NCBI GenBank assembly: GCA_021852265.1
Contig: JAJZNV010000006.1
Coordinates: 1 to 51,270, forward strand
DNA: 51,270 bases
DNA from: Nanobdellota archaeon
GTDB lineage: Archaea > Nanobdellota > Nanobdellia > Parvarchaeales > Parvarchaeaceae
Direction of reading: 5' to 3'
Shown: positions 39,805 through 51,270 of the stretch, piece by piece
Layout: each line of letters begins with the position of its first letter
Numbering within the stretch: position 1 is the stretch's first letter
The notes under the pieces: generated by a model
Told to the model about the DNA's origin: nothing
What the model saw: only the letters and a program-made list of their open reading frames with translations
Database searches by the model: none
Program-made: the position numbers and the translations under genes

Positions 39805-41706
39805 TCACATTCTTTCTATAGGTATAAGCCCTAACAGTATCATTGCATTGTAAAGAACTATTCTACACGAATCTATAAGCCAAAGCCTAAATGCCACTTT
39901 TTCTTTCTCTGCTTTCAGAACGGGCGTATTAACGTAGAATGAATTGAACTCCAATGCGAAATCAGATATATAATTGGCCATGCCTGCAAGATCCAGAGAC
40001 TTCGCTGAACGTTCCAGCACATCCGGGAACCCTGCTATACCGAGCAGAATCTTTTTCTCCGGTTCAGTTAAATCACCTACTTCAGATGCTTCTTTAGCCA
40101 GGTTCGTCTCAGCAGCCTTTTTTAGTATGCTGCTTATCCTTGCATACGTATATATCAGATACGCTGCACTTTTTTCCTCGAGTTTAAGAGCTTTGTCTAT
40201 ATCAAACACTATTACGTTCTTTGGATCTGCCCTAACCATCTCATAACGCAGTGTCGAAACGGCAAGTTTTTCGGCTATATCATGGCATTCCTTTTCGTCC
40301 AACTTGGCGTTTTTGTTCTTAGTCTGCTCAAACAGTATCCTATGAAGCTGATCCAAAAAATCATCCGCATTTATGTATATCCCTTTCCTTCCACTCATCT
40401 GAAAGACTTCCTTGTCTTCCTGCTCTTCGATGCCTAGTTTTTGCGCTGTATTCTTTGATAGGGCGACGACCTCGTAACCGTAGTGCACATATCTCAGGTC
40501 CTTACCTTTACCAAGTTTCGCTATCGCTTCGGTTACCACATTCTGCTCATAGCTCTGCCGTATATCTATGACGTTTATAGAAGTCTTGACGCCATTGAAA
40601 ATAGGGTGTTTAGATTCCCCCTCCTTGTCTAGCGTAGTGGTCCACAGATCCTGTCCATTTTTTTGTACTTCGAATTTCTTGTACCTAAAGTCGCTGTCTA
40701 ACAGTCCATGTTTCCACATTGCATACGCAATGTCCTTTCCGGCGTATACCACAGTCCCATCAGAACGCACGAGTATCTTATCATCATTATTGTTTGACGA
40801 GTTAAGTCCGAACGTCCAGCAGCCCTTTTTTTTACCATCGGTTTCGAGGCGCACTGCCCCTATCTCTTTTAACTGCCTAAATGCTGTGGCCCAAAACTTA
40901 TACGCAAGAATGTGTGATTCGTAGTTTACAAGGTTATAAAACACGTTTAGCCTATCAAGAGTCTGAAGCTGCGCCTTGAGCACCTCAAGGACCATCTTTC
41001 TTGCATAATGAGCGATATCATTTTCTCCATGTTCTATTGCTTTAAGGACTTCACTCCGTTTCTCCAGCAGTGTAGGATCTTCCTTGTACAGGCTATTTAC
41101 CTTCACATACACTTCATCACCGAGATAATGATCAAACTTTACACCATCCTTTCTCTCCGGGAACCCTAAATATTTCACACCGACGATATTGTCCGCCACC
41201 TGCGCACCCGTATCATCTATGTAATTAGTAACGGTAACATCATAGCCGACGAACCTCAAAAGGCGGGCAAGTGCATCTCCTATAGACGAATTTCTGACGT
41301 GCCCGATGTGCAAAGCTTTGTTTGGGTTTACGCTGGTGTGCTCGATCATTATTCTCTCTCCATTTCCTACCAAGGTTCTGCCATACTCTTTGTCGAGCAT
41401 AGAGCCCAGCTCTTTTGCTATATACTCATAATTATACCAACAATTCACATAGCCGTTTAAGACGCTTGCCTTCTTAATGAAAGGACATTTTTCCAGCTTA
41501 TTTTTTATCTCATTGGCAACCGTTTCTAGGTTTTTACCGCTCTTTTTGCTTTCCCTTAATGCAAGAGTTATTGCGAAATCTCCTTCATAGCCAGGCAGCT
41601 GTTTCTTAAAATTTAATTTTACGTCCTCTACGCTTTGAAGGGACAGCCTCTCCATTATATCTTCAAAAATCCTGCGCATTGGGTTTTTATTGAATCCTAC
41701 TTGCAT
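39805..41706 (-). CDS. argS: Arginine--tRNA ligase
   Basis: EHTSVNPNKALHIGHVRN, RSDGT, MSGRKG, YTYAR, DALR-type C-terminus ending ERM. Confidence 0.96.
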   Translation of the reverse strand: MQVGFNKNPMRRIFEDIMERLSLQSVEDVKLNFKKQLPGYEGDFAITLALRESKKSGKNLETVANEIKNKLEKCPFIKKASVLNGYVNCWYNYEYIAKELGSMLDKEYGRTLVGNGERIMIEHTSVNPNKALHIGHVRNSSIGDALARLLRFVGYDVTVTNYIDDTGAQVADNIVGVKYLGFPERKDGVKFDHYLGDEVYVKVNSLYKEDPTLLEKRSEVLKAIEHGENDIAHYARKMVLEVLKAQLQTLDRLNVFYNLVNYESHILAYKFWATAFRQLKEIGAVRLETDGKKKGCWTFGLNSSNNNDDKILVRSDGTVVYAGKDIAYAMWKHGLLDSDFRYKKFEVQKNGQDLWTTTLDKEGESKHPIFNGVKTSINVIDIRQSYEQNVVTEAIAKLGKGKDLRYVHYGYEVVALSKNTAQKLGIEEQEDKEVFQMSGRKGIYINADDFLDQLHRILFEQTKNKNAKLDEKECHDIAEKLAVSTLRYEMVRADPKNVIVFDIDKALKLEEKSAAYLIYTYARISSILKKAAETNLAKEASEVGDLTEPEKKILLGIAGFPDVLERSAKSLDLAGMANYISDFALEFNSFYVNTPVLKAEKEKVAFRLWLIDSCRIVLYNAMILLGLIPIERM

Positions 41707-42972: not shown

Positions 42973-44307
42973 ATGAAAGAATTTGAATCTTTTGGTCTGA
43001 AACCAGAGCTTTTGCTTTCCCTAAAGAAGATGGGTTTTGTTAACTCAACGGATGTACAAGAAGCAGCGATACCGTTAGCATTAACCGGCAAAGATATAGT
43101 TGTAAGGGCAAAGACGGGCACCGGAAAAACGGGTGCCTTCCTTATCCCAATCATAAATAGAGTAAGTAAGGCAGATTACGATGCAGCGTTAATAATAACC
43201 CCGACCCGTGAGCTTGCACTGCAGGTAACAGACGTCGCCAAGCAGATGTGCAAGGATTCTGACCTCCGTATAGTCACTGTGTACGGCGGTGCATCAATGA
43301 ATGTGCAGATAAATGAACTTAGGCGCAGGGTAAACATAATAGTTGGTACTCCCGGTAGGCTGATAGATCTTATGAAGCAACGCGAGCTTAGAACAGAGGG
43401 CATAAAATTTCTTGTGCTTGATGAGGCAGATACTATGTTTGATATGGGTTTTATTGAGGATATAGAATACATAATTTCACAACTCCCGAAAAACAGGCAG
43501 ACGATGCTGTTCTCCGCGACTATGCCTTCGATGATAGTTTCGATAGCAAAAAAACACATGAAAGATGCAACAAGAATCAATGTTGGTAAAGAAGAGGAAA
43601 TAACAGTAAATACAATAACACACTCTTATGCATTCGCCTCCGGCCGCCAGAAATTCTCAGTTTTATTGGCGTACATAAACCAATATCACCCGAAAAAGGC
43701 GATAATATTCTCTGCAACGCAACGTGGCGCAGATATGCTATACAGATTATTAAAGAACAACAATTTCGATGCGACGATAATGCATGGAGGGCTAAGCCAG
43801 GCACGGCGAGAGTATTCATTATCAGACTTTAGGAAAGGAACACAATTCCTTATAGCCACGAATGTGGCTGCACGCGGGCTAGATATAACTGATGTTTCGG
43901 ATGTAATAAATTTCGATGTAAGCGAGGATCCAGCGGTCTATGTACACCGTGTTGGTAGATCTGCACGTATGGGTGCTGAGGGAAGAGCATTTAGTATATT
44001 CCCCTCTAGGGATAGATACCTCATAGAAGAGATAGAGAACGCTGCTAAAGTTAAAATGAACCTGCTTGAACTTGATACCTCTGCATATAAGGAAGCAGAG
44101 AACCTTCCAGAGCCGTCATATGAGAATAGAGGAGGGTTTAGGAGAGGTGGCGGTCAGAAATTTTATGGGCACGGTCCAAGACGATTCGGTGAAGGAGATC
44201 GACGAAACCAACACAATAGATTTGAAAAAGGTGGATTTTCAAGACATCACCCGAAAAAACGATTCGGACAGTCTCAGTCTCGTGGATTTTTTAATTCTAA
44301 CAACTAA
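42973..44307 (+). CDS. DEAD-box RNA helicase with Arg/Gly-rich tail
   Basis: Q motif, AKTGTGKT, PTRELA, TPGR, DEAD, SAT, ARGLD, HRVGRSAR. Confidence 0.96.
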   Translation: MKEFESFGLKPELLLSLKKMGFVNSTDVQEAAIPLALTGKDIVVRAKTGTGKTGAFLIPIINRVSKADYDAALIITPTRELALQVTDVAKQMCKDSDLRIVTVYGGASMNVQINELRRRVNIIVGTPGRLIDLMKQRELRTEGIKFLVLDEADTMFDMGFIEDIEYIISQLPKNRQTMLFSATMPSMIVSIAKKHMKDATRINVGKEEEITVNTITHSYAFASGRQKFSVLLAYINQYHPKKAIIFSATQRGADMLYRLLKNNNFDATIMHGGLSQARREYSLSDFRKGTQFLIATNVAARGLDITDVSDVINFDVSEDPAVYVHRVGRSARMGAEGRAFSIFPSRDRYLIEEIENAAKVKMNLLELDTSAYKEAENLPEPSYENRGGFRRGGGQKFYGHGPRRFGEGDRRNQHNRFEKGGFSRHHPKKRFGQSQSRGFFNSNN

Positions 44308-44354
44308 ATAGATACTATGGCCAACGTAGCATATCAAAAGGGTTCTATCTAACT

Positions 44355-45080
44355 ATGAGAACCAGCTTTTTACTAGTCGCGGTCGTAGTGATTTCTGCAC
44401 TGTTGGCACTGGACCCAATAAAACTGCTGTCGCTTTCTGATGCTAGTATGTTTTTCATGGTGATAGGTGTTACATACGGTGTAGTGTCTGCATTCGCAAT
44501 AAATGACGTTGATAAATCTTTAGACCAGTTGCGTGATTCTTTTGGTAGAGAGGCAAGTGCACTAAAATCAATATACCTGCTGGCCAAGCGAATTTCGGAC
44601 AACGCCGCGTTCAGGAAGATACAGCTCGCTATGCTCGACTACTGCAGAGAAACGATTGACCTCGACCTCAGTGCATATGAGAAAGATTCCAGTGCGCATC
44701 TAAAATTCCATTCGCTTCTTGGGCAGATATCCTCGATAAAAATAAAAAACCGTAGGGACGATGCATTTTTTAGTTCAATAATCGAAGAAGCAAAAATAGC
44801 ATCAAACTCCAGAGATGAGCAGATAATACTTACAAAAGACAGGCTGCCAAAAATACAGTGGGTCTTGGAGGTATTCCTCTCAATGATACTAATCATCATA
44901 CTCACTATTGTAGTGCTTCCTGATGGGGCGGTATCAACTGTTGTAGAGTTTTTAATGCTGTCTGCGATACTTCTTACGCTTGTAGTCATCTATGAACTCG
45001 ATTCAATGAACGATTTTGAGGATGAGATATCCAACGAACCGTACAGAAAATTAATTGCTCTCATCGAAAAAGGGGTTTAA
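44355..45080 (+). CDS. DUF4239/bestrophin-like membrane protein
   Basis: IGVTYGVVSAF, EASAL, second TM hairpin, ISNEPY. Confidence 0.65.
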   Translation: MRTSFLLVAVVVISALLALDPIKLLSLSDASMFFMVIGVTYGVVSAFAINDVDKSLDQLRDSFGREASALKSIYLLAKRISDNAAFRKIQLAMLDYCRETIDLDLSAYEKDSSAHLKFHSLLGQISSIKIKNRRDDAFFSSIIEEAKIASNSRDEQIILTKDRLPKIQWVLEVFLSMILIIILTIVVLPDGAVSTVVEFLMLSAILLTLVVIYELDSMNDFEDEISNEPYRKLIALIEKGV

Positions 45081-45095
45081 CAAATTTTAGATTAT

Positions 45096-45554
45096 TCAGT
45101 TTAAAAACTCCCATCCTGCATTGACAAGCGTAACAATAAGAAGATTTATCGCCAGTCCCAATACGCTTAATATTATGAATGCAGAGGGAATTATTGCAAA
45201 ATTAAGCACGAGAAACGGAAGTAATCCAAGTCCGATCACCAGCATTGCAAGATTACAAACCATCGTTACCGTGACCAGCAGGACGGCTAGGAATCCACCA
45301 TAAAGTTTGCCATCCCAAATCATAATTGCATCAACTATGTAAAATACGGATATTATAATGGCGAACACTGCAACTACCTGACTAGCTATAGTGAGGCTAT
45401 CATTATTTAGCATACCCCCTGCGAATATGAGAGTTATAGTTGAAAGCACTATCCAGAACACTCCATACCCGAACAGCGCGATGCCGGCAAATTCAAGCCT
45501 TTTATCAATGTGCTTAAAAACGCCCTTCCTCGACATACCTAATAGTATCCTCAT
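45096..45554 (-). CDS. Four-TM hypothetical membrane protein
   Basis: Four hydrophobic segments. Confidence 0.6.
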   Translation of the reverse strand: MRILLGMSRKGVFKHIDKRLEFAGIALFGYGVFWIVLSTITLIFAGGMLNNDSLTIASQVVAVFAIIISVFYIVDAIMIWDGKLYGGFLAVLLVTVTMVCNLAMLVIGLGLLPFLVLNFAIIPSAFIILSVLGLAINLLIVTLVNAGWEFLN

Positions 45555-45618
45555 ATCATTAATAACCTTAACTTGTCTTTTGTGGTATCTTGTATTAACG
45601 GGGGTTGGCAGAGAATGA

Positions 45619-46251
45619 TCAGGTATTTACTTTGATTATCTCCAATAATTCTTCAAGGTTGCTTATTGTATAATCTGATCCACAGTCAAGGTCTCCTTCT
45701 CTCCGTATCAGGACACTCTTTATTTTTGCCGCTTTCGCCGCTGTTATATCGTGCCTACTGTCACCAACAGCAAGCCCCTCCTCGACTTTTACGCCCATCA
45801 ACTCAAATGCCTTCAAAAATACGTCGGGTGCAGGTTTACCCGCCTTTACACTGTCAGAACTGACCCATTCATCTATAAGATCCGAAAGGCCTGTCTTTTG
45901 AAGAAATGCCGGTAACAGCTCTCCTCCGAGCCCGGTTGCTATGCTTAGTTTTATACCCAAAGATCTTAATTTTTTTAAGACGGATTTTGTTTCCGGAAAA
46001 GGCGTTATGGTGTGGAGATTCTTGAGGACCGCATCCTTTCGTATTCGTCTTATATCAATTACATCCTGTTCCGTTGGAGACTTTAGGAAAGCTTTTACCA
46101 TGTCTTTAACGGAGATCCCTCCGAACTTCTTGAGTTCCTCTGCCGTTATTTTTACCTTTTTTTCAGCGAATGCAGCTATTTCTCCAGCTATTAGGCTATC
46201 CTGACTGTCAATCAGCGTTCCATCCATATCAAACGCTATTCCTTTTATCAT
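45619..46251 (-). CDS. HAD-superfamily phosphatase (beta-PGM/Gph-like)
   Basis: FDMDGTLIDS, IAT, KPAPD, VGDSRHD. Confidence 0.92.
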   Translation of the reverse strand: MIKGIAFDMDGTLIDSQDSLIAGEIAAFAEKKVKITAEELKKFGGISVKDMVKAFLKSPTEQDVIDIRRIRKDAVLKNLHTITPFPETKSVLKKLRSLGIKLSIATGLGGELLPAFLQKTGLSDLIDEWVSSDSVKAGKPAPDVFLKAFELMGVKVEEGLAVGDSRHDITAAKAAKIKSVLIRREGDLDCGSDYTISNLEELLEIIKVNT

Positions 46252-46460
46252 AGTCTTTTTTAATACCGTTGCGGTGACTGAAGATTCGCTTTTCCAGCCA
46301 TTTGTATTCCTTATTTTGCTTTACTGTCCAAATTTATTTGCAGCCAGCATATTATTTATTCCAACCCAAGTATTTATTATTTCGCGGTTCGCTTTCATCT
46401 CCTACCCAAAGGATAGGGTTTTCTGCTCACATTTATAAAAACATAACTCCAAGTAATAAG

Positions 46461-47477
46461 ATGCAGGATTTATCAAGATTCGAATTGGTAAAAAGGAACA
46501 CGGCAGAAGTGATAACTGATGAGGAGCTCAAATCTCTCTTATTAATCAAAAAAACGCCAGCTGCATACATCGGCAGGGCGACCACCGGTCCGCTTCATCT
46601 AGGACACCTGATAGCACTTGGAAAAATATTCGATTTCCAGAGGGCAGGAATAGACGTAAAAATACTGCTTGCAGATATACATGCTGCACTTGATGATCTA
46701 AAAGCAAAATGGGAAGACCTTGACAAACGGGCCGAATACACTCAAAAATGTATAGAATTGTCATTTGACTGGCCTTCAAAAATAACATTTATAAGAGGCT
46801 CGGATTTCCAGTTAAAACATGATTATGTCCTGGATATGCTTAAGGCTTCCACAGGTACAACAGTTGAGAGGGCTACGCGAGCCGCTTCTGAGGTAACAAG
46901 GATGAAGAATCCAAAGGTCAGTGAGCTTATTTATCCGCTCATGCAATCCTTGGATGAGCAATACCTCGATGTAGACATCCAACTCGGCGGCTTAGACCAG
47001 AGGCACATACTCGCATTCGCAAGGGAAATCCTCCCGCGTTTGGGATACGCAAAGCGCGTAGAGATCATGACACCATTAGTATCCTCCCTTAATGGACCGG
47101 GAACCAAAATGAGCTCTTCAATCCCCTCAAGTCATATAAAGGTCTACGAATCGCGTGAATCCATAAAGAAGAAAATAGACGCTGCTTATTGCCCTGCAGG
47201 AGTGGTAGAGGACAATACTGTGCTCCAGATAGCCAAATTCCTGATATTTCCTGCAGAGAATAAAATGATAATAGAACGAGAACCAAAGTTCGGCGGAGAC
47301 GTAGAAATCGACTCCCCCGAGCACTTGGAAAGTCTATTCAAGGATAAGAAACTGCACCCAACCGACCTGAAGAATGCTGTGGCAGATTACCTCGGAAGCA
47401 GATTCACAAAAGCCAGAGAATACTTTGAAAAGCATAAGGACATGCTAGAGGCGCTTGGACCTGAATTTTCGGCTTAG
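46461..47477 (+). CDS. tyrS: Tyrosine--tRNA ligase (archaeal type)
   Basis: HLGH, ADIHA, YPLMQ, GGLDQR, KMSSS, AYCP, LHPTDLK; start reassigned to ATG 46461. Confidence 0.96.
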   Translation: MQDLSRFELVKRNTAEVITDEELKSLLLIKKTPAAYIGRATTGPLHLGHLIALGKIFDFQRAGIDVKILLADIHAALDDLKAKWEDLDKRAEYTQKCIELSFDWPSKITFIRGSDFQLKHDYVLDMLKASTGTTVERATRAASEVTRMKNPKVSELIYPLMQSLDEQYLDVDIQLGGLDQRHILAFAREILPRLGYAKRVEIMTPLVSSLNGPGTKMSSSIPSSHIKVYESRESIKKKIDAAYCPAGVVEDNTVLQIAKFLIFPAENKMIIEREPKFGGDVEIDSPEHLESLFKDKKLHPTDLKNAVADYLGSRFTKAREYFEKHKDMLEALGPEFSA

Positions 47478-47535
47478 ATAATAGTAAAAAATGCTTCGAT
47501 TAAGCTATTTATTCTAAAATAATATTAAGACAAAT

Positions 47536-47730
47536 ATGAAAAAGAAACAGCCAAAAGCGGTTAAAAAGAAGAAAACTGCCCCCAATGGCTTCGAAGCAGA
47601 AGAAGACATTGAAGAGAAAGGGGAGATTAAGGATTTAACACACGAAGCAGAAGAAGAGGAAAAAGAAGAGAGTGAATTCGAAGAAGATGAAGATGAATCT
47701 CAGCAAAGTACTGAGGAAGACGAATTCTAG
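47536..47730 (+). CDS. Small bipolar protein: Lys-rich N-terminus, Glu/Asp-rich remainder
   Basis: 64 aa; MKKKQPKAVKKKK followed by an acidic tract. Confidence 0.6.
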   Translation: MKKKQPKAVKKKKTAPNGFEAEEDIEEKGEIKDLTHEAEEEEKEESEFEEDEDESQQSTEEDEF

Positions 47731-47776
47731 AACGCCTCGTAATCTGATTTGATGCGGTTCCGATATAGTTCTGGGT

Positions 47777-48436
47777 ATGAATAAATTTATTTTATTGCAG
47801 CCGGAAAAAGCGAAGGCGGCTATCAAGATCCTGGAGGATACCTATCCAAATCAAAAATATTATCTTGATTTTTCAACGCCCCTGGAGCTGCTTGTGGCAG
47901 CTATTCTGTCAGCACAGACGCGTGATGTTGTCGTTAATTCAATAACACCCGCACTTTTCAATGATTATAAGACTGCAAAGGATTACGCCGGTGCCGGTGA
48001 ATCCGATTTGCTGAAGTATATCTCCAAAGTCACATTCGCAGGTAATAAAGTCAAAAATATAATAAAAGCTTGTTCTATGATAGAGGATGATTATGACGGT
48101 AAGGTACCAAACAGCATCGAATCTTTAGTTAAACTTCCCGGTGTTGGCAGAAAAACTGCCAATACTGTTCTGATAAACGCTTATGGGATAGTCGAAGGAA
48201 TCCCGGTGGATACGTGGGTAATAAAGCTAGCTAGCAGGATAGGTCTAAGCAAGAGCCAAAAACCAGACGAAATAGAGCGGGACCTTATGGGTCTAGTAGC
48301 TAAGCCGTATTGGAAAACGATTGCATACGTACTGAAAGCCCACGGCCACAAAATATGCCATTCTGCGCGCCCTCTCTGTAGCATCTGCGTGCTTAATAAA
48401 CTATGCCCAAAAAATGGTGTCTCAAAATCACTGTAG
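47777..48436 (+). CDS. nth: Endonuclease III
   Basis: LSAQ, HhH LPGVGRKTA, VDT, C-x6-C-x2-C-x5-C 4Fe-4S motif. Confidence 0.95.
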   Translation: MNKFILLQPEKAKAAIKILEDTYPNQKYYLDFSTPLELLVAAILSAQTRDVVVNSITPALFNDYKTAKDYAGAGESDLLKYISKVTFAGNKVKNIIKACSMIEDDYDGKVPNSIESLVKLPGVGRKTANTVLINAYGIVEGIPVDTWVIKLASRIGLSKSQKPDEIERDLMGLVAKPYWKTIAYVLKAHGHKICHSARPLCSICVLNKLCPKNGVSKSL

Positions 48437-48499
48437 TTTCTATGTGATTGGCAATCGGTGAACTCTTCAAACCGGAAAAGTGGTGTAGGTAGTATATGC

Positions 48500-48811
48500 T
48501 TATTGCAGGTTTACCAGCAAGTCTTCCCCTTCTACTTTGACTTCAAAGGTCTTGAGAGGTGTTTTTGCAGGGCCCTCAACAACACTTCCTGTTTTAATAT
48601 CGAATTTTGAACCATGCCAAGGACATGTAATGATATTGTCACTAAGCTTACCATTTGAAAGCGGACCGCCGACATGCGTGCATTTCTCATCTGTCGCATA
48701 GAACTTGCCCCCGAAACGAGATATCAAAATTGTCTTTCCAGAGATCTGAAAACTCTTCATTTGCTTATCTTTAATATCCGATACTTTTCCAACCTTTACA
48801 AAATTTGCCAT
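48500..48811 (-). CDS. Rieske-type [2Fe-2S] ferredoxin
   Basis: CTH...CPWHGSKFD, GPA. Confidence 0.93.
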   Translation of the reverse strand: MANFVKVGKVSDIKDKQMKSFQISGKTILISRFGGKFYATDEKCTHVGGPLSNGKLSDNIITCPWHGSKFDIKTGSVVEGPAKTPLKTFEVKVEGEDLLVNLQ

Positions 48812-48890
48812 GTCATTTGAAATCGGGTGATAAATTTAAAGTTATCCAGAGATTCGCACTTTATTTATATAAAATGTGCGTAATCTGCAT

Positions 48891-49511
48891 ATGACAAGGC
48901 AGGTTTCAGCGTTATATAAAACTCTTGATGAACATAAGCCCGAGGACATCATCAAATCACTATTCGAGTCCTCTTACAATGAGCTTCTAAGTATAAAACC
49001 CAAGTCCAGCCTGCTGAAGGCTCTGAATAAGAGAATAACAGCGTTGATTGAACCAATAAATAAAAATCTTGAACCACCAAAGTTGGTGATGGAGCTGGAA
49101 CGTATTATCTCAGATAAACTGAGGATTGGAGAGGACGTTAATTTTGGCGTCGACTTTGCGCTTGGTGGAGAAGGAGACTGCGTCGTATTTGCGGATATCT
49201 TCTTTTCGGCGCTCTATGTCATGAAACGCTATGATGTGCTCGATAAACTTAGGGTACATTACAATCATAATGGCACCCATGTATGGCTTTCATACAGAGA
49301 CATAAAAGGGACAATTAAAATAAACGATGCATATTTTTCTCCTAAGCGAACAGGAAGGCTTCCGCTTTTATTATCATACAATCTTAATAATCTGGGTGTA
49401 ACGCTTGAGAATATGGGAAAGCTTAGAGCTGCACGTTCGGCTTATAAGACAGCTATAGAACTGGCTCCTTACTCTGAGCTCCCAAGGTTGAACCTGGAGG
49501 ACTCGTATTAG
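48891..49511 (+). CDS. Transglutaminase-like domain + single TPR protein
   Basis: GEGDC..FA, HVW, downstream Asp; C-terminal NNLG......G....A...Y..A.ELAP TPR. Confidence 0.6.
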   Translation: MTRQVSALYKTLDEHKPEDIIKSLFESSYNELLSIKPKSSLLKALNKRITALIEPINKNLEPPKLVMELERIISDKLRIGEDVNFGVDFALGGEGDCVVFADIFFSALYVMKRYDVLDKLRVHYNHNGTHVWLSYRDIKGTIKINDAYFSPKRTGRLPLLLSYNLNNLGVTLENMGKLRAARSAYKTAIELAPYSELPRLNLEDSY

Positions 49512-49513
49512 CT

Positions 49514-49936
49514 ATGGCAAAAGAATATAAAAATCCTTCCGTTGCTGCAGACGGAATAATAATAAAAGACAAGAAGATTCTGTTAGTAAGGAGGGGACAC
49601 GACCCCTATGCAGGCAGCTGGGCATTACCAGGCGGTTTTGTCAACTACGGAGAAAGAACGGAGGATGCCGTCGTAAGAGAAGTCAGGGAAGAAACCACGC
49701 TTGAAACTGTGGTTGATGATCTGGTCGGCGTTTATTCAGATCCCCACAGAGACCCCAGAGGACATGTCATATCCATAACTTATCTATTAAAGAACCCAAT
49801 TGGAGAACCACACGGCTCCGATGATGCCAAGGAAGCGCGATGGTGGGATATAGACTCGCTGCCGTCACTTGCATTCGACCACGCTAAAATAATAGCAGAG
49901 GGCCTTCGGCTGTATAAGCAAAAAAAATTAGCGTAA
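49514..49936 (+). CDS. Nudix hydrolase (ADP-ribose pyrophosphatase/MutT-like)
   Basis: GGFVNYGERTEDAVVREVREET Nudix box, RDPR, LAFDH. Confidence 0.93.
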   Translation: MAKEYKNPSVAADGIIIKDKKILLVRRGHDPYAGSWALPGGFVNYGERTEDAVVREVREETTLETVVDDLVGVYSDPHRDPRGHVISITYLLKNPIGEPHGSDDAKEARWWDIDSLPSLAFDHAKIIAEGLRLYKQKKLA

Positions 49937-49940
49937 TGGT

Positions 49941-50258
49941 ATGCTCCTAGCCAGATTTAAGGTGGCTGAGAGAAGCATGGAACCTTCCCTTAGTGCAGGG
50001 GATTTTGTCATAGTCAGCGGCCTGCCATATCTCTTTAAGGAGCCCAAAAAAGGCGATATCATTGTTGCACTCGTAGACGACAGGTACCTAATTAAACGAA
50101 TAAAAAAGACCGTTGGTGGCCGTTATTTTATTATGGGTGACAACAAAAAATACAGTGTTGACAGCAGAAGTTTCGGACCGGTATCACGCAAACAGCTCGT
50201 CGGAAAGGTCATAAAATGTATAAAAAAGGCACAGAAGGTAGTTCGAGAGAGAAGATAA
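49941..50258 (+). CDS. sodX: S26-family peptidase, NiSOD maturation protease
   Basis: SMEPSL (Ser), IKR (Lys), GDN...S.DSR.FG; no TM anchor; adjacent to sodN. Confidence 0.85.
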   Translation: MLLARFKVAERSMEPSLSAGDFVIVSGLPYLFKEPKKGDIIVALVDDRYLIKRIKKTVGGRYFIMGDNKKYSVDSRSFGPVSRKQLVGKVIKCIKKAQKVVRERR

Positions 50259-50291
50259 TGCTCGGAATACAATTTCGGCCATTAGCCGTTC

Positions 50292-50387
50292 TTAACTATG
50301 GGCTGCTAACCAATTGTTTCTCAAAACGAAGGCTAGCAACACGACCAGATAAGCTATTACCGCTCCCGCGATAATTGTTGTGTCCAT
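50292..50387 (-). CDS. Unannotated 31-aa single-TM microprotein
   Basis: MDTTIIAGAVIAYLVVLLAFVLRNNWLAAHS*; GGAGGAGG (50391-50398) upstream and a TTTATATT box further upstream. Confidence 0.55.
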   Translation of the reverse strand: MDTTIIAGAVIAYLVVLLAFVLRNNWLAAHS

Positions 50388-50607
50388 ATTCCTCCTCCAT
50401 CATAGTATTATATAGGACGAACTTGAATATAAATTTTTCTAAAGCGGTTATATCTGTATTGAGGGGCTTTCTACAGGCTTTACGTCGCCATAAATGGAAA
50501 TTCAATAAAATAGCATTTTGATATTAGTAGTGTTCTTTTCTCTATAAAATTCCCATTATGGTTAGTATGAGAGGATAAAATCATTTTTGGTTCTAAAATC
50601 CCACCAA

Positions 50608-51126
50608 TTAAGCTTTTGGCACCACTGTATCATGTTCTGTTGGGTATGGTGCTTTAACGTGCGAAGTCTCTATTCCTTTCGTTTTCCAGAATATTTCCGC
50701 AAATTTATTGACGTTCTCTAAGAGTTCTTCTGCAGATTTAATATCTGTATCCTGTTTGGACTTTGATCCCGCCTTCATTATTTTCCAGACAATATCATGC
50801 AGCTCCGGAAACTTCTGTAAATGATCTGGCTTAAAATAGTCGCCCCAAATTATCCTGATCTCATGTTTGCACAGTTCGGCGTGCTTTTCCTTTACATCCG
50901 TATATCTTGCCATCTTATGGTGATAATCATTTTTATCTTCTGGTTTCATACTTTCTGAAGGGACCTTCAACTGGCTTATAAGCATATCCATACGAATCAC
51001 GGTATGAGCCGACAACTGCGCAAGATGTGGATCGTATATGCCGCAAGGTATATCACAATGAGCATAAACTATCTTTGCAGGAAATATTTTATCCAAAATT
51101 TGGAAAACTGACTTTAAAACTAACAT
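50608..51126 (-). CDS. sodN: Nickel superoxide dismutase precursor
   Basis: 22-aa leader then Ni-hook HCDIPCGIYDP; KEKHAE, IWGDYFK, FAEIFWKTK. Confidence 0.95.
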   Translation of the reverse strand: MLVLKSVFQILDKIFPAKIVYAHCDIPCGIYDPHLAQLSAHTVIRMDMLISQLKVPSESMKPEDKNDYHHKMARYTDVKEKHAELCKHEIRIIWGDYFKPDHLQKFPELHDIVWKIMKAGSKSKQDTDIKSAEELLENVNKFAEIFWKTKGIETSHVKAPYPTEHDTVVPKA

Positions 51127-51146
51127 AATTTCAATAGAAGCTTTAG

Positions 51147-51154
51147 ATTTATAA
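51147..51154 (-). promoter_or_regulatory. Archaeal TATA box of sodN (leaderless transcript)
   Basis: TTTATAAA preceded by A-rich BRE-like CGCAAAA, ending ~21 nt before ATG 51126. Confidence 0.55.
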
Positions 51155-51171
51155 ATTTTGCGCTTTTTGCA

Positions 51172-51270
51172 TCAATGTGCAATGCCATCAGGTGCCTTGA
51201 ATTTTGCGGTATTAATCTTGCCATAAACCTGCTTATGAGAACAGACTTTCAGCAGATATATCTCTGAACT
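51172..51270 (-). CDS. Partial gene at window edge (C-terminus), possibly RelE/YafQ-like
   Basis: Open frame ...SEIYLLKVCSHKQVYGKINTAKFKAPDGIAH*; IYLLKVCSH..VY resembles the RelE/YafQ C-terminal motif. Confidence 0.3.
   Translation of the reverse strand, partial: SSEIYLLKVCSHKQVYGKINTAKFKAPDGIAH

Follow-up and report, generated by a model that had tools for sequence, protein, structure and literature searches.

A nickel superoxide dismutase gene and a predicted SodX-type maturase gene in a DPANN archaeon, with an either-or distribution of superoxide dismutases in two DPANN families

Analysis of a 51,270-nucleotide stretch of archaeal DNA (the window) revealed that it carries an intact precursor gene of nickel superoxide dismutase (NiSOD), sodN, together with the gene of a predicted S26-type maturase, that this cassette was probably inherited from the ancestor of the host's subclade and that it likely provides the only superoxide-removing enzyme of the organism, replacing the Fe/Mn-SOD of its relatives. 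The preliminary description of this DNA had called a sodN/sodX pair and contrasted it with the Fe/Mn-type SODs characterised from archaea. The call was right but ordinary, and the pair is no rarity: related archaea often have it, and NiSOD in archaea including DPANN, along with interdomain transfer, was already published in 2021 and 2023; the gene pair is one more archaeal NiSOD in a published pattern. What is new here amounts to small additions, namely an either-or split of the two SOD types in two DPANN families and a local inversion at the present locus.

The NiSOD precursor and its predicted maturase

The sodN gene (50608..51126, minus strand) encodes a precursor of 172 aa, comprising a 22-aa leader ending ...KIVYA (51061..51126, minus strand) and a 150-aa mature chain, with the Ni-hook HCDIPCGIYDP (His1, Cys2, Asp3, Pro5, Cys6 and Tyr9; 51028..51060, minus strand) located directly after the leader and the His1 codon at 51058-51060. 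The leader ending VYA and the exact hook had been called in the preliminary description, and both were confirmed with exact coordinates. Straight after the leader, HCDIPCGIY conforms to the pattern H-C-x-x-P-C-G-x-Y, with the hook residues being invariant in 50/50 rows of SodN alignment A1; in addition, the leaders of SodN relatives span approximately 9-34 aa, nearly all with an alanine directly before the hook. From this sequence context, we infer that the leader is removed before His1. A profile search, which had been proposed as a check, placed SodN within TIGR02753 (174.7 bits, well over the cut-off of 90) and PF09055 (153.8 bits vs. a cut-off of 25, E 4e-45), and SodN also matched six solved NiSOD sequences in the PDB (E 3e-25 to 5e-24), with its Ni-hook aligning with the Streptomyces hook. 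The predicted model of the mature chain (mean pLDDT 93.7, with residues 1-3 below 50) displayed four long helices forming a four-helix bundle plus a C-terminal hairpin, and its best Foldseek matches were all NiSOD, with TM of 0.90-0.94 over the target and 34-38% identity to the Streptomyces chains, which we take to be those of PDB 1T6U, 1T6I, 1Q0D and 3G4X. Codon adaptation of sodN ranks at the 92nd percentile among 671 genes of the genome.

Compared with Streptomyces NiSOD and SodX, the present system shares the Ni-hook residues, a cleavable leader (predicted here), the four-helix fold and a linked S26 peptidase. The mature chain is longer (150 aa vs. 117 aa in Streptomyces), with some 13 additional residues following helix 1 and, at the C-terminus, an extension of about 22 residues, predicted to form a two-strand hairpin; unlike its Streptomyces counterpart, sodN here has an archaeal TATA promoter. 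S. coelicolor is described, in the accessible part of the source, as having sodN and sodF under Nur (PMC3919588), whereas no second SOD was found here.

The gene facing sodN encodes a peptidase of 105 aa (49941..50258, plus strand) that belongs to the S26 family by PF10502 (74 bits, cut-off 22.9) and harbors a Ser12/Lys52 dyad as well as GDN66 and DSR74 of the G-D-N...S-x-D-S-R box, in agreement with the earlier reading of a soluble S26 peptidase with these motifs. Both catalytic residues are conserved (Ser in 100/101 and Lys in 100/101 relatives), and the protein has no membrane segment, as judged by a best 19-residue hydropathy of 0.89. Within the 40 genomes of the host family, strong SodX matches (E <= 1e-16) were present in 8/8 NiSOD genomes and 0/32 Fe/Mn-SOD genomes, the latter yielding two weak hits (E about 1e-5), so this short, soluble peptidase is found only with sodN; an S26 partner was likewise found in 101 of the 106 sodN loci examined, and is adjacent to sodN here. 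Scores against TIGR02754 (SodX) were 63.2 and 62.8 bits, missing the curated cut-off of 63.25 by under 1 bit, while all 7 orthologues from the related genomes with sodN (kin) exceeded it (64.2-86.4); owing to this narrow miss, we file the peptidase as SodX-like in role, a predicted SodX by orthology and context and not a formal member. The earlier sodX assignment is thus upheld by orthology, context and co-occurrence but not by the family cut-off.

Might this peptidase be no maturase at all, being either a stray signal-peptidase-like protein or a sodX decaying after an inversion, with SodN processed otherwise or not at all? In keeping with such a view are the sub-threshold TIGR02754 result, a higher score against the TIGR02227 signal peptidase I model (74.8 bits), codon adaptation in the lowest percentile of the genome and the fact that the gene is no longer co-transcribed with sodN. 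Nevertheless, the reading frame is unbroken, retains every conserved residue and shows no frameshift in the four runs compared, and the peptidase lacks a membrane anchor; considering also that 7/7 kin orthologues pass the cut-off and that the occurrence of the gene matches that of sodN without exception in 40 genomes, we find this view very hard to sustain. Even less credible, with a likelihood close to nil, is an assembly or binning artefact in which a bacterial fragment was joined to the end of an archaeal contig. Suspicion could arise from the location of sodN, 144 bases from the contig end, and from the branching of assembly graphs at 51241. However, a single contig of 7,674 bases, assembled from sequencing that belongs to a different study and year, covers 44000-51270 with 14 differences and joins TyrRS to sodN (being near-identical to the window, it could still be near the source), with the other three runs examined covering this stretch in pieces. 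In addition, contig C19 (G000:C19) overlaps the end of the window by 127 identical bases and carries an ABC transporter, an exonuclease, a dCTP deaminase and a hydrolase, which is the order preceding sodN in G020, G021, G031 and G032; seven kin genomes also carry sodN. A chimeric locus, the possibility for which read mapping had been advised, is therefore ruled out.

The gene pair is intact and probably constitutes a working NiSOD system. NiSOD is a hexameric enzyme in which His1, Cys2 and Cys6 have established roles; here, these three residues would fold round one nickel ion in each subunit with its predicted four-helix fold, and Ni(II)/Ni(III) cycling, as in the chemistry of Streptomyces NiSOD, would dismutate superoxide. 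Cleavage behind V-Y-A by the Ser/Lys peptidase, expected from what is known of the family, would first free the His1 amine. Activation of NiSOD through preprotein cleavage by a maturation protease is described in the accessible part of PMC8346466, and the Ni(II/III) cycle and reversible inhibition by peroxide in that of bioRxiv 10.1101/2021.01.12.426412.

The host genome (776,532 bases in 26 contigs, 88% complete) contains archaeal SSU rRNA. Fifteen sequencing runs contain the stretch wholly or partly, four of which may be its source, and those with a stated organism are from mine drainage, mine tailings or sediment; the runs listed include none of RNA, which has no bearing on expression. Of the SodN loci with a name, the nearest two (74-76%) bear the labels Nanoarchaeota and Ca. 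Parvarchaeota, one of them with the same neighbours; from these labels and common neighbours, the host appears to be a Parvarchaeota-type DPANN archaeon, in line with the acidophilic DPANN host proposed earlier, which we uphold as probable.

Promoters and gene order

The TATA box of sodN, TTTATAAA (51148-51155, minus strand), begins 29 bases upstream of the ATG and has a purine-rich stretch just upstream (the two together spanning 51148..51163), presumably a BRE-like element by its consensus. Genome-wide, TTTAWA peaks at exactly -29 (35/664 genes, compared with 0-7 at positions outside -31..-27) and is found at -34..-26 in 111/664 genes vs. 1.6% of random 14-base windows. The leaderless archaeal spacing noted in the preliminary description was thus borne out, -29 being the modal position of the genome, and sodN would be expressed from this box as a leaderless message. 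The same position recurs in 5/7 kin orthologues, with the remaining 2/7 having a TATA further up plus a ribosome-site-like stretch; this sharing speaks against acquisition from bacteria by the present genome or its near lineage.

No TATA match was detected within 60 bases upstream of either sodX or the adjoining gene for a Nudix hydrolase (49514..49936, plus strand; PF00293, E 1e-22), which separates sodN from sodX in sister genomes. The next gene upstream, encoding a TPR-containing protein of 206 aa (48864..49511 including its TATA, plus strand; ATG at 48891), has TTTATA at -27 (48864-48869), and the intergenic gaps in TPR-nudix-sodX are 2 and 4 bases. These short gaps and a TATA solely at the TPR gene suggest that the three genes probably form one transcript headed by the TPR gene. 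The TPR protein itself (48891-49511, plus strand) contains one weak C-terminal TPR (a TPR_1 hit below cut-off), with a spacing of Cys, His and Asp that resembles, by eye, what we take to be a transglutaminase-type triad; no homologue was found among the sister and relative loci compared.

As described earlier, sodN and the peptidase gene face each other, being 349 bases apart, but the gap contains a conserved 31-codon gene (50292..50387, minus strand) that the preliminary description had missed. This gene has a GGAGG ribosome site and encodes a hydrophobic, genus-conserved microprotein of 31 aa ending ...LRNNWLAAHS, which is present once in 32/33 genomes of the genus and in 0/7 genomes of the other two genera; it matched no Pfam family and gave unnamed clusters only in the protein atlas. 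The microprotein is not specific to NiSOD.

Among 101 loci with both genes, sodX is downstream of sodN on the same strand in 88, upstream on the same strand in 3, divergent in 9 and convergent in 1, the sole convergent locus being that of the window. The nudix gene follows sodN in G020, G021, G031 and G032; in G021 and G032 the order is sodN>nudix>sodX and then, on the opposite strand, a small gene, and G031 has the same order and then the small gene, with a broken nudix frame. Past the small gene, the G032 locus continues with Rieske and endonuclease III genes, while the order in G012 is sodN>sodX, small gene, Rieske, endonuclease III and TyrRS, with Rieske following sodX in G012, G016 and G032. 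The window contains the same genes as its sisters, including a Rieske ferredoxin (48500..48811, minus strand; PF00355) on the far side of the inversion, with the nudix-sodX-microprotein block reversed and the TPR gene added. Because the sister order is sodN>nudix>sodX, we infer that the facing order derives from a local inversion of this block in the present species; the proposal that sodX had been appended to a resident operon was not borne out, as sister genomes carry sodN>nudix>sodX as a co-directional unit. The inversion would have broken this unit and left sodX behind the TPR promoter, assuming this direction of change. At the ends of the inversion, we found no inverted repeat, only short pairs at chance level.

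Several further features of the neighbourhood were noted. Upstream of sodN, the frame of a serine hydrolase (L381:7006-8246 into window positions 51172-51270, minus strand) is 164 aa long vs. about 194 aa in kin, and the sequence at its end looks unrelated; next comes a ParE-like gene of 101 aa (PF15781, marginally below cut-off), which sister loci lack at the corresponding position. A very acidic ORF of 64 aa (47536-47730, plus strand), without a Pfam match, is located between TyrRS and endonuclease III. Over 47777-51126 and L381, the SOD genes reside among genes for DNA repair and nucleotide cleaning, comprising endonuclease III, Nudix, an exonuclease III type and dCTP deaminase.

Relatives of SodN and distribution of SOD types

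A protein search with SodN returned 3,855 hits, with taxon names in the best 120 being all archaeal and several of these already annotated as Ni superoxide dismutase. Among the best 80 GTDB loci, 47 were labelled archaeal (22 of them Micrarchaeota), including all of the first 32, and a SodX-like gene was nearby in 73. Identity to SodN was 64-79% for six of the seven kin, up to 69% for Micrarchaeota and about 60% for the best bacterial protein. For a joint SodN+SodX tree, we used 106 of 122 loci, i.e. those with a readable hook, excluding 18 near-duplicate Sulfurovum-type loci, 2 family-row duplicates, 8 further near-duplicates, L047 and metagenome loci. In this weakly supported tree, the window was found within an all-archaeal group of 32 rows (SH-aLRT 87, unstarred) made up of 7 kin, 20 Micrarchaeota, 4 Thermoplasmata-type and 1 Nanobdellota sequences, and around this group are further archaeal sequences mixed with those of Chloroflexota and Patescibacteria type. 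A tree of SodN only was set aside, being mostly unresolved and with three forced changes that stemmed from duplicate rows.

These relationships bear on the possibility of a recent direct transfer from bacteria into this lineage, followed by local domestication with a new promoter and placement of sodX into a resident operon. Such a scenario would be compatible with a family that is mainly bacterial and has moved into archaea several times, as stated in the accessible part of bioRxiv 10.1101/2021.01.12.426412, with Patescibacteria-type and Chloroflexota SodN reaching 54-61% identity and with a match, by sampling, in only 15/401 genomes of the phylum to which the host belongs (sampling gave 27/401 for the phylum that includes a Curtissbacteria locus and 47/251 for that of a Chloroflexota locus). 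However, the nearest proteins are archaeal (Parvarchaeota, Micrarchaeota and Thermoplasmata), in disagreement with the bacterial acquisition by this genome or a near lineage that had been put forward; moreover, the locus, the promoter position and the nudix-sodX link are common to sister species, and GC3 of sodN is at the 40th percentile of the genome. We consider the scenario quite improbable, with the "recent" part largely refuted. Since the nearest SodN are archaeal and sisters have an orthologous locus with the same promoter, any bacterial origin would be old and shared; an ancient bacterial origin of the cassette is plausible, and the SodN+SodX tree seems to fit an old origin and not a recent one. 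The cassette probably falls in a mostly archaeal branch along with those of Micrarchaeota and Thermoplasmata.

The 40 genomes of the host family comprise 8 with NiSOD and 32 with Fe/Mn-SOD, with both in 0 and neither in 0. Inspection of 13 Fe/Mn loci showed 12 to be full-length with a D-x-W/Y/F-E-H-A-Y/F box, the other one being cut by a contig end. The host genome yielded no Fe/Mn-SOD and no superoxide reductase in an assembly that is 88% complete, so that a second SOD could be unassembled. A similar picture emerged for the family of a Micrarchaeota locus (129 genomes), with NiSOD in 30, Fe/Mn-SOD in 82 (counting one unpublished genome, G170), neither in 17 and both in 0, vs. about 19 expected with both if the two were independent; as kin are not independent, Fisher tests on the split overstate it and were set aside, and the split is to be read as a pattern and not as a test. 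In 17 of the 25 genomes of the genus that have Fe/Mn-SOD, its gene is situated <=18 kb from the homologue of the microprotein gene that adjoins sodX in the window, indicating that both SOD types use one broad neighbourhood, which is probably a result of shared ancestry. The Fe/Mn-SODs of the family (L089-L094, L295-L302) are of several types, those of G008, G028 and G038/G039 differing from the common type; this diversity points to more than one exchange of the Fe/Mn enzyme as well.

Inheritance of the cassette from the subclade ancestor has to be weighed against repeated exchange among cohabiting acidophilic archaea (the genus, Micrarchaeota and Thermoplasmata), whereby the 8 kin copies would represent several acquisitions or in-place replacements. 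In a species tree of RpoA'+EF-2 (a quick tree with SH-aLRT support only), 7/8 NiSOD genomes are in a starred 9-genome clade along with two Fe/Mn genomes flanking G013, and the SOD type has to change 4 times, 2 of these being forced by starred branches. G013, which has NiSOD, branches amid the Fe/Mn-SOD genomes G023 and G036, and its SodN shares no more than 50-60% identity with kin; in G032, the sodN-nudix-sodX cassette is 64-69% identical to that of G021 vs. 79-94% for flanking genes, and the nearest proteins to its SodN are from Micrarchaeota (68%). On the other hand, an AU test on 47 of the 106 SodN+SodX rows did not reject a single origin of all 8 kin cassettes (p-AU 0.775), with the tree constrained to one clade scoring higher, and a single gain followed by returns to Fe/Mn-SOD, or variation in rates, fits equally well. 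Repeated exchange is therefore possible but doubtful, and we favor inheritance from the subclade ancestor.

Two other observations were made in these comparisons. At L292 (G032:C6) and L087, the cassette is less conserved than its flanks, making in-place replacement of the cassette possible. ArgRS was rejected as a species marker because the genus has two types of it (44-69% or 36-39% identical to that of the window), hence the use of RpoA' and EF-2; across the family, the two types of ArgRS (39805-41706, minus strand, in the window) cut across the species tree, which suggests replacement of the synthetase.

Published archaeal NiSODs, nickel supply and selection

Sutherland et al. reported NiSOD in 26 archaea, naming Woesearchaea and Poseidoniales, and several interdomain transfers, two of them into Woesearchaea (accessible part of bioRxiv 10.1101/2021.01.12.426412). 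Their account resembles ours in that DPANN are among the archaea with sodN, the sequences being placed in the Chloroflexota/Patescibacteria part of the family and attributed to interdomain transfer; it differs in that its main text, as far as accessible, is without Parvarchaeota or an acid-mine lineage and without treatment of sodX. In marine group II (Poseidoniales), each clade has one SOD type and not both, and NiSOD is listed also in DPANN, TACK, Asgard and Thermoplasmatota, with Nanoarchaeota entries in tables (accessible part of PMC10783094). The same source calls the wide presence of both SOD types unique to MGII; the NiSOD of MGII is marine and sister to cyanobacterial proteins, unlike the one described here. 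The either-or pattern of marine group II thus extends to the two DPANN families examined here, which come from largely acidic settings and show the same strict split (8/32 and 30/82). NiSOD (K00518) has been listed as stress equipment of the Lutacidiplasmatales (PMC9287336, in part), which are likewise acidophilic archaea, but with a Thermoplasmatota host and by annotation only. In the accessible portions of two further papers, only sodA is mentioned, for some genomes of a Parvarchaeota family (PMC7779479), and sodN is reported from a metagenome without a host (PMC10378326). Our literature search, which covered few subscription journals, retrieved no paper on NiSOD in Parvarchaeota, although supplements may list such genomes.

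With respect to selection, the main argument of Sutherland et al. is iron limitation, a poor fit for iron-rich mine drainage, and peroxide tolerance is also offered (accessible part of bioRxiv 10.1101/2021.01.12.426412). Cyanobacteria are described as keeping sodT beside sodN and sodX (PMC4284471, in part). As for nickel uptake, NicO was not found in the present genome, and CorA and SBP_bac_5 were found in 0/5 genomes. One may speculate that acid-mine DPANN (the host genus and the Micrarchaeota family) repeatedly trade NiSOD and Fe/Mn-SOD one-for-one, from archaeon to archaeon and within the same neighbourhood, with nickel loading accomplished without a recognisable importer; since the iron-rich habitat rules out iron sparing, such trading would be driven by the need to withstand peroxide and Fenton damage. 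We regard this reading as tentative and, on balance, unlikely. The literature search, with its few subscription journals, also retrieved no paper in which an archaeal NiSOD, or the extended 150-aa form, was characterised biochemically; this small two-gene system would be an easy test case. In addition, close genome pairs (G013 vs. G023 and G036) allow one to ask what selects nickel over plentiful iron.
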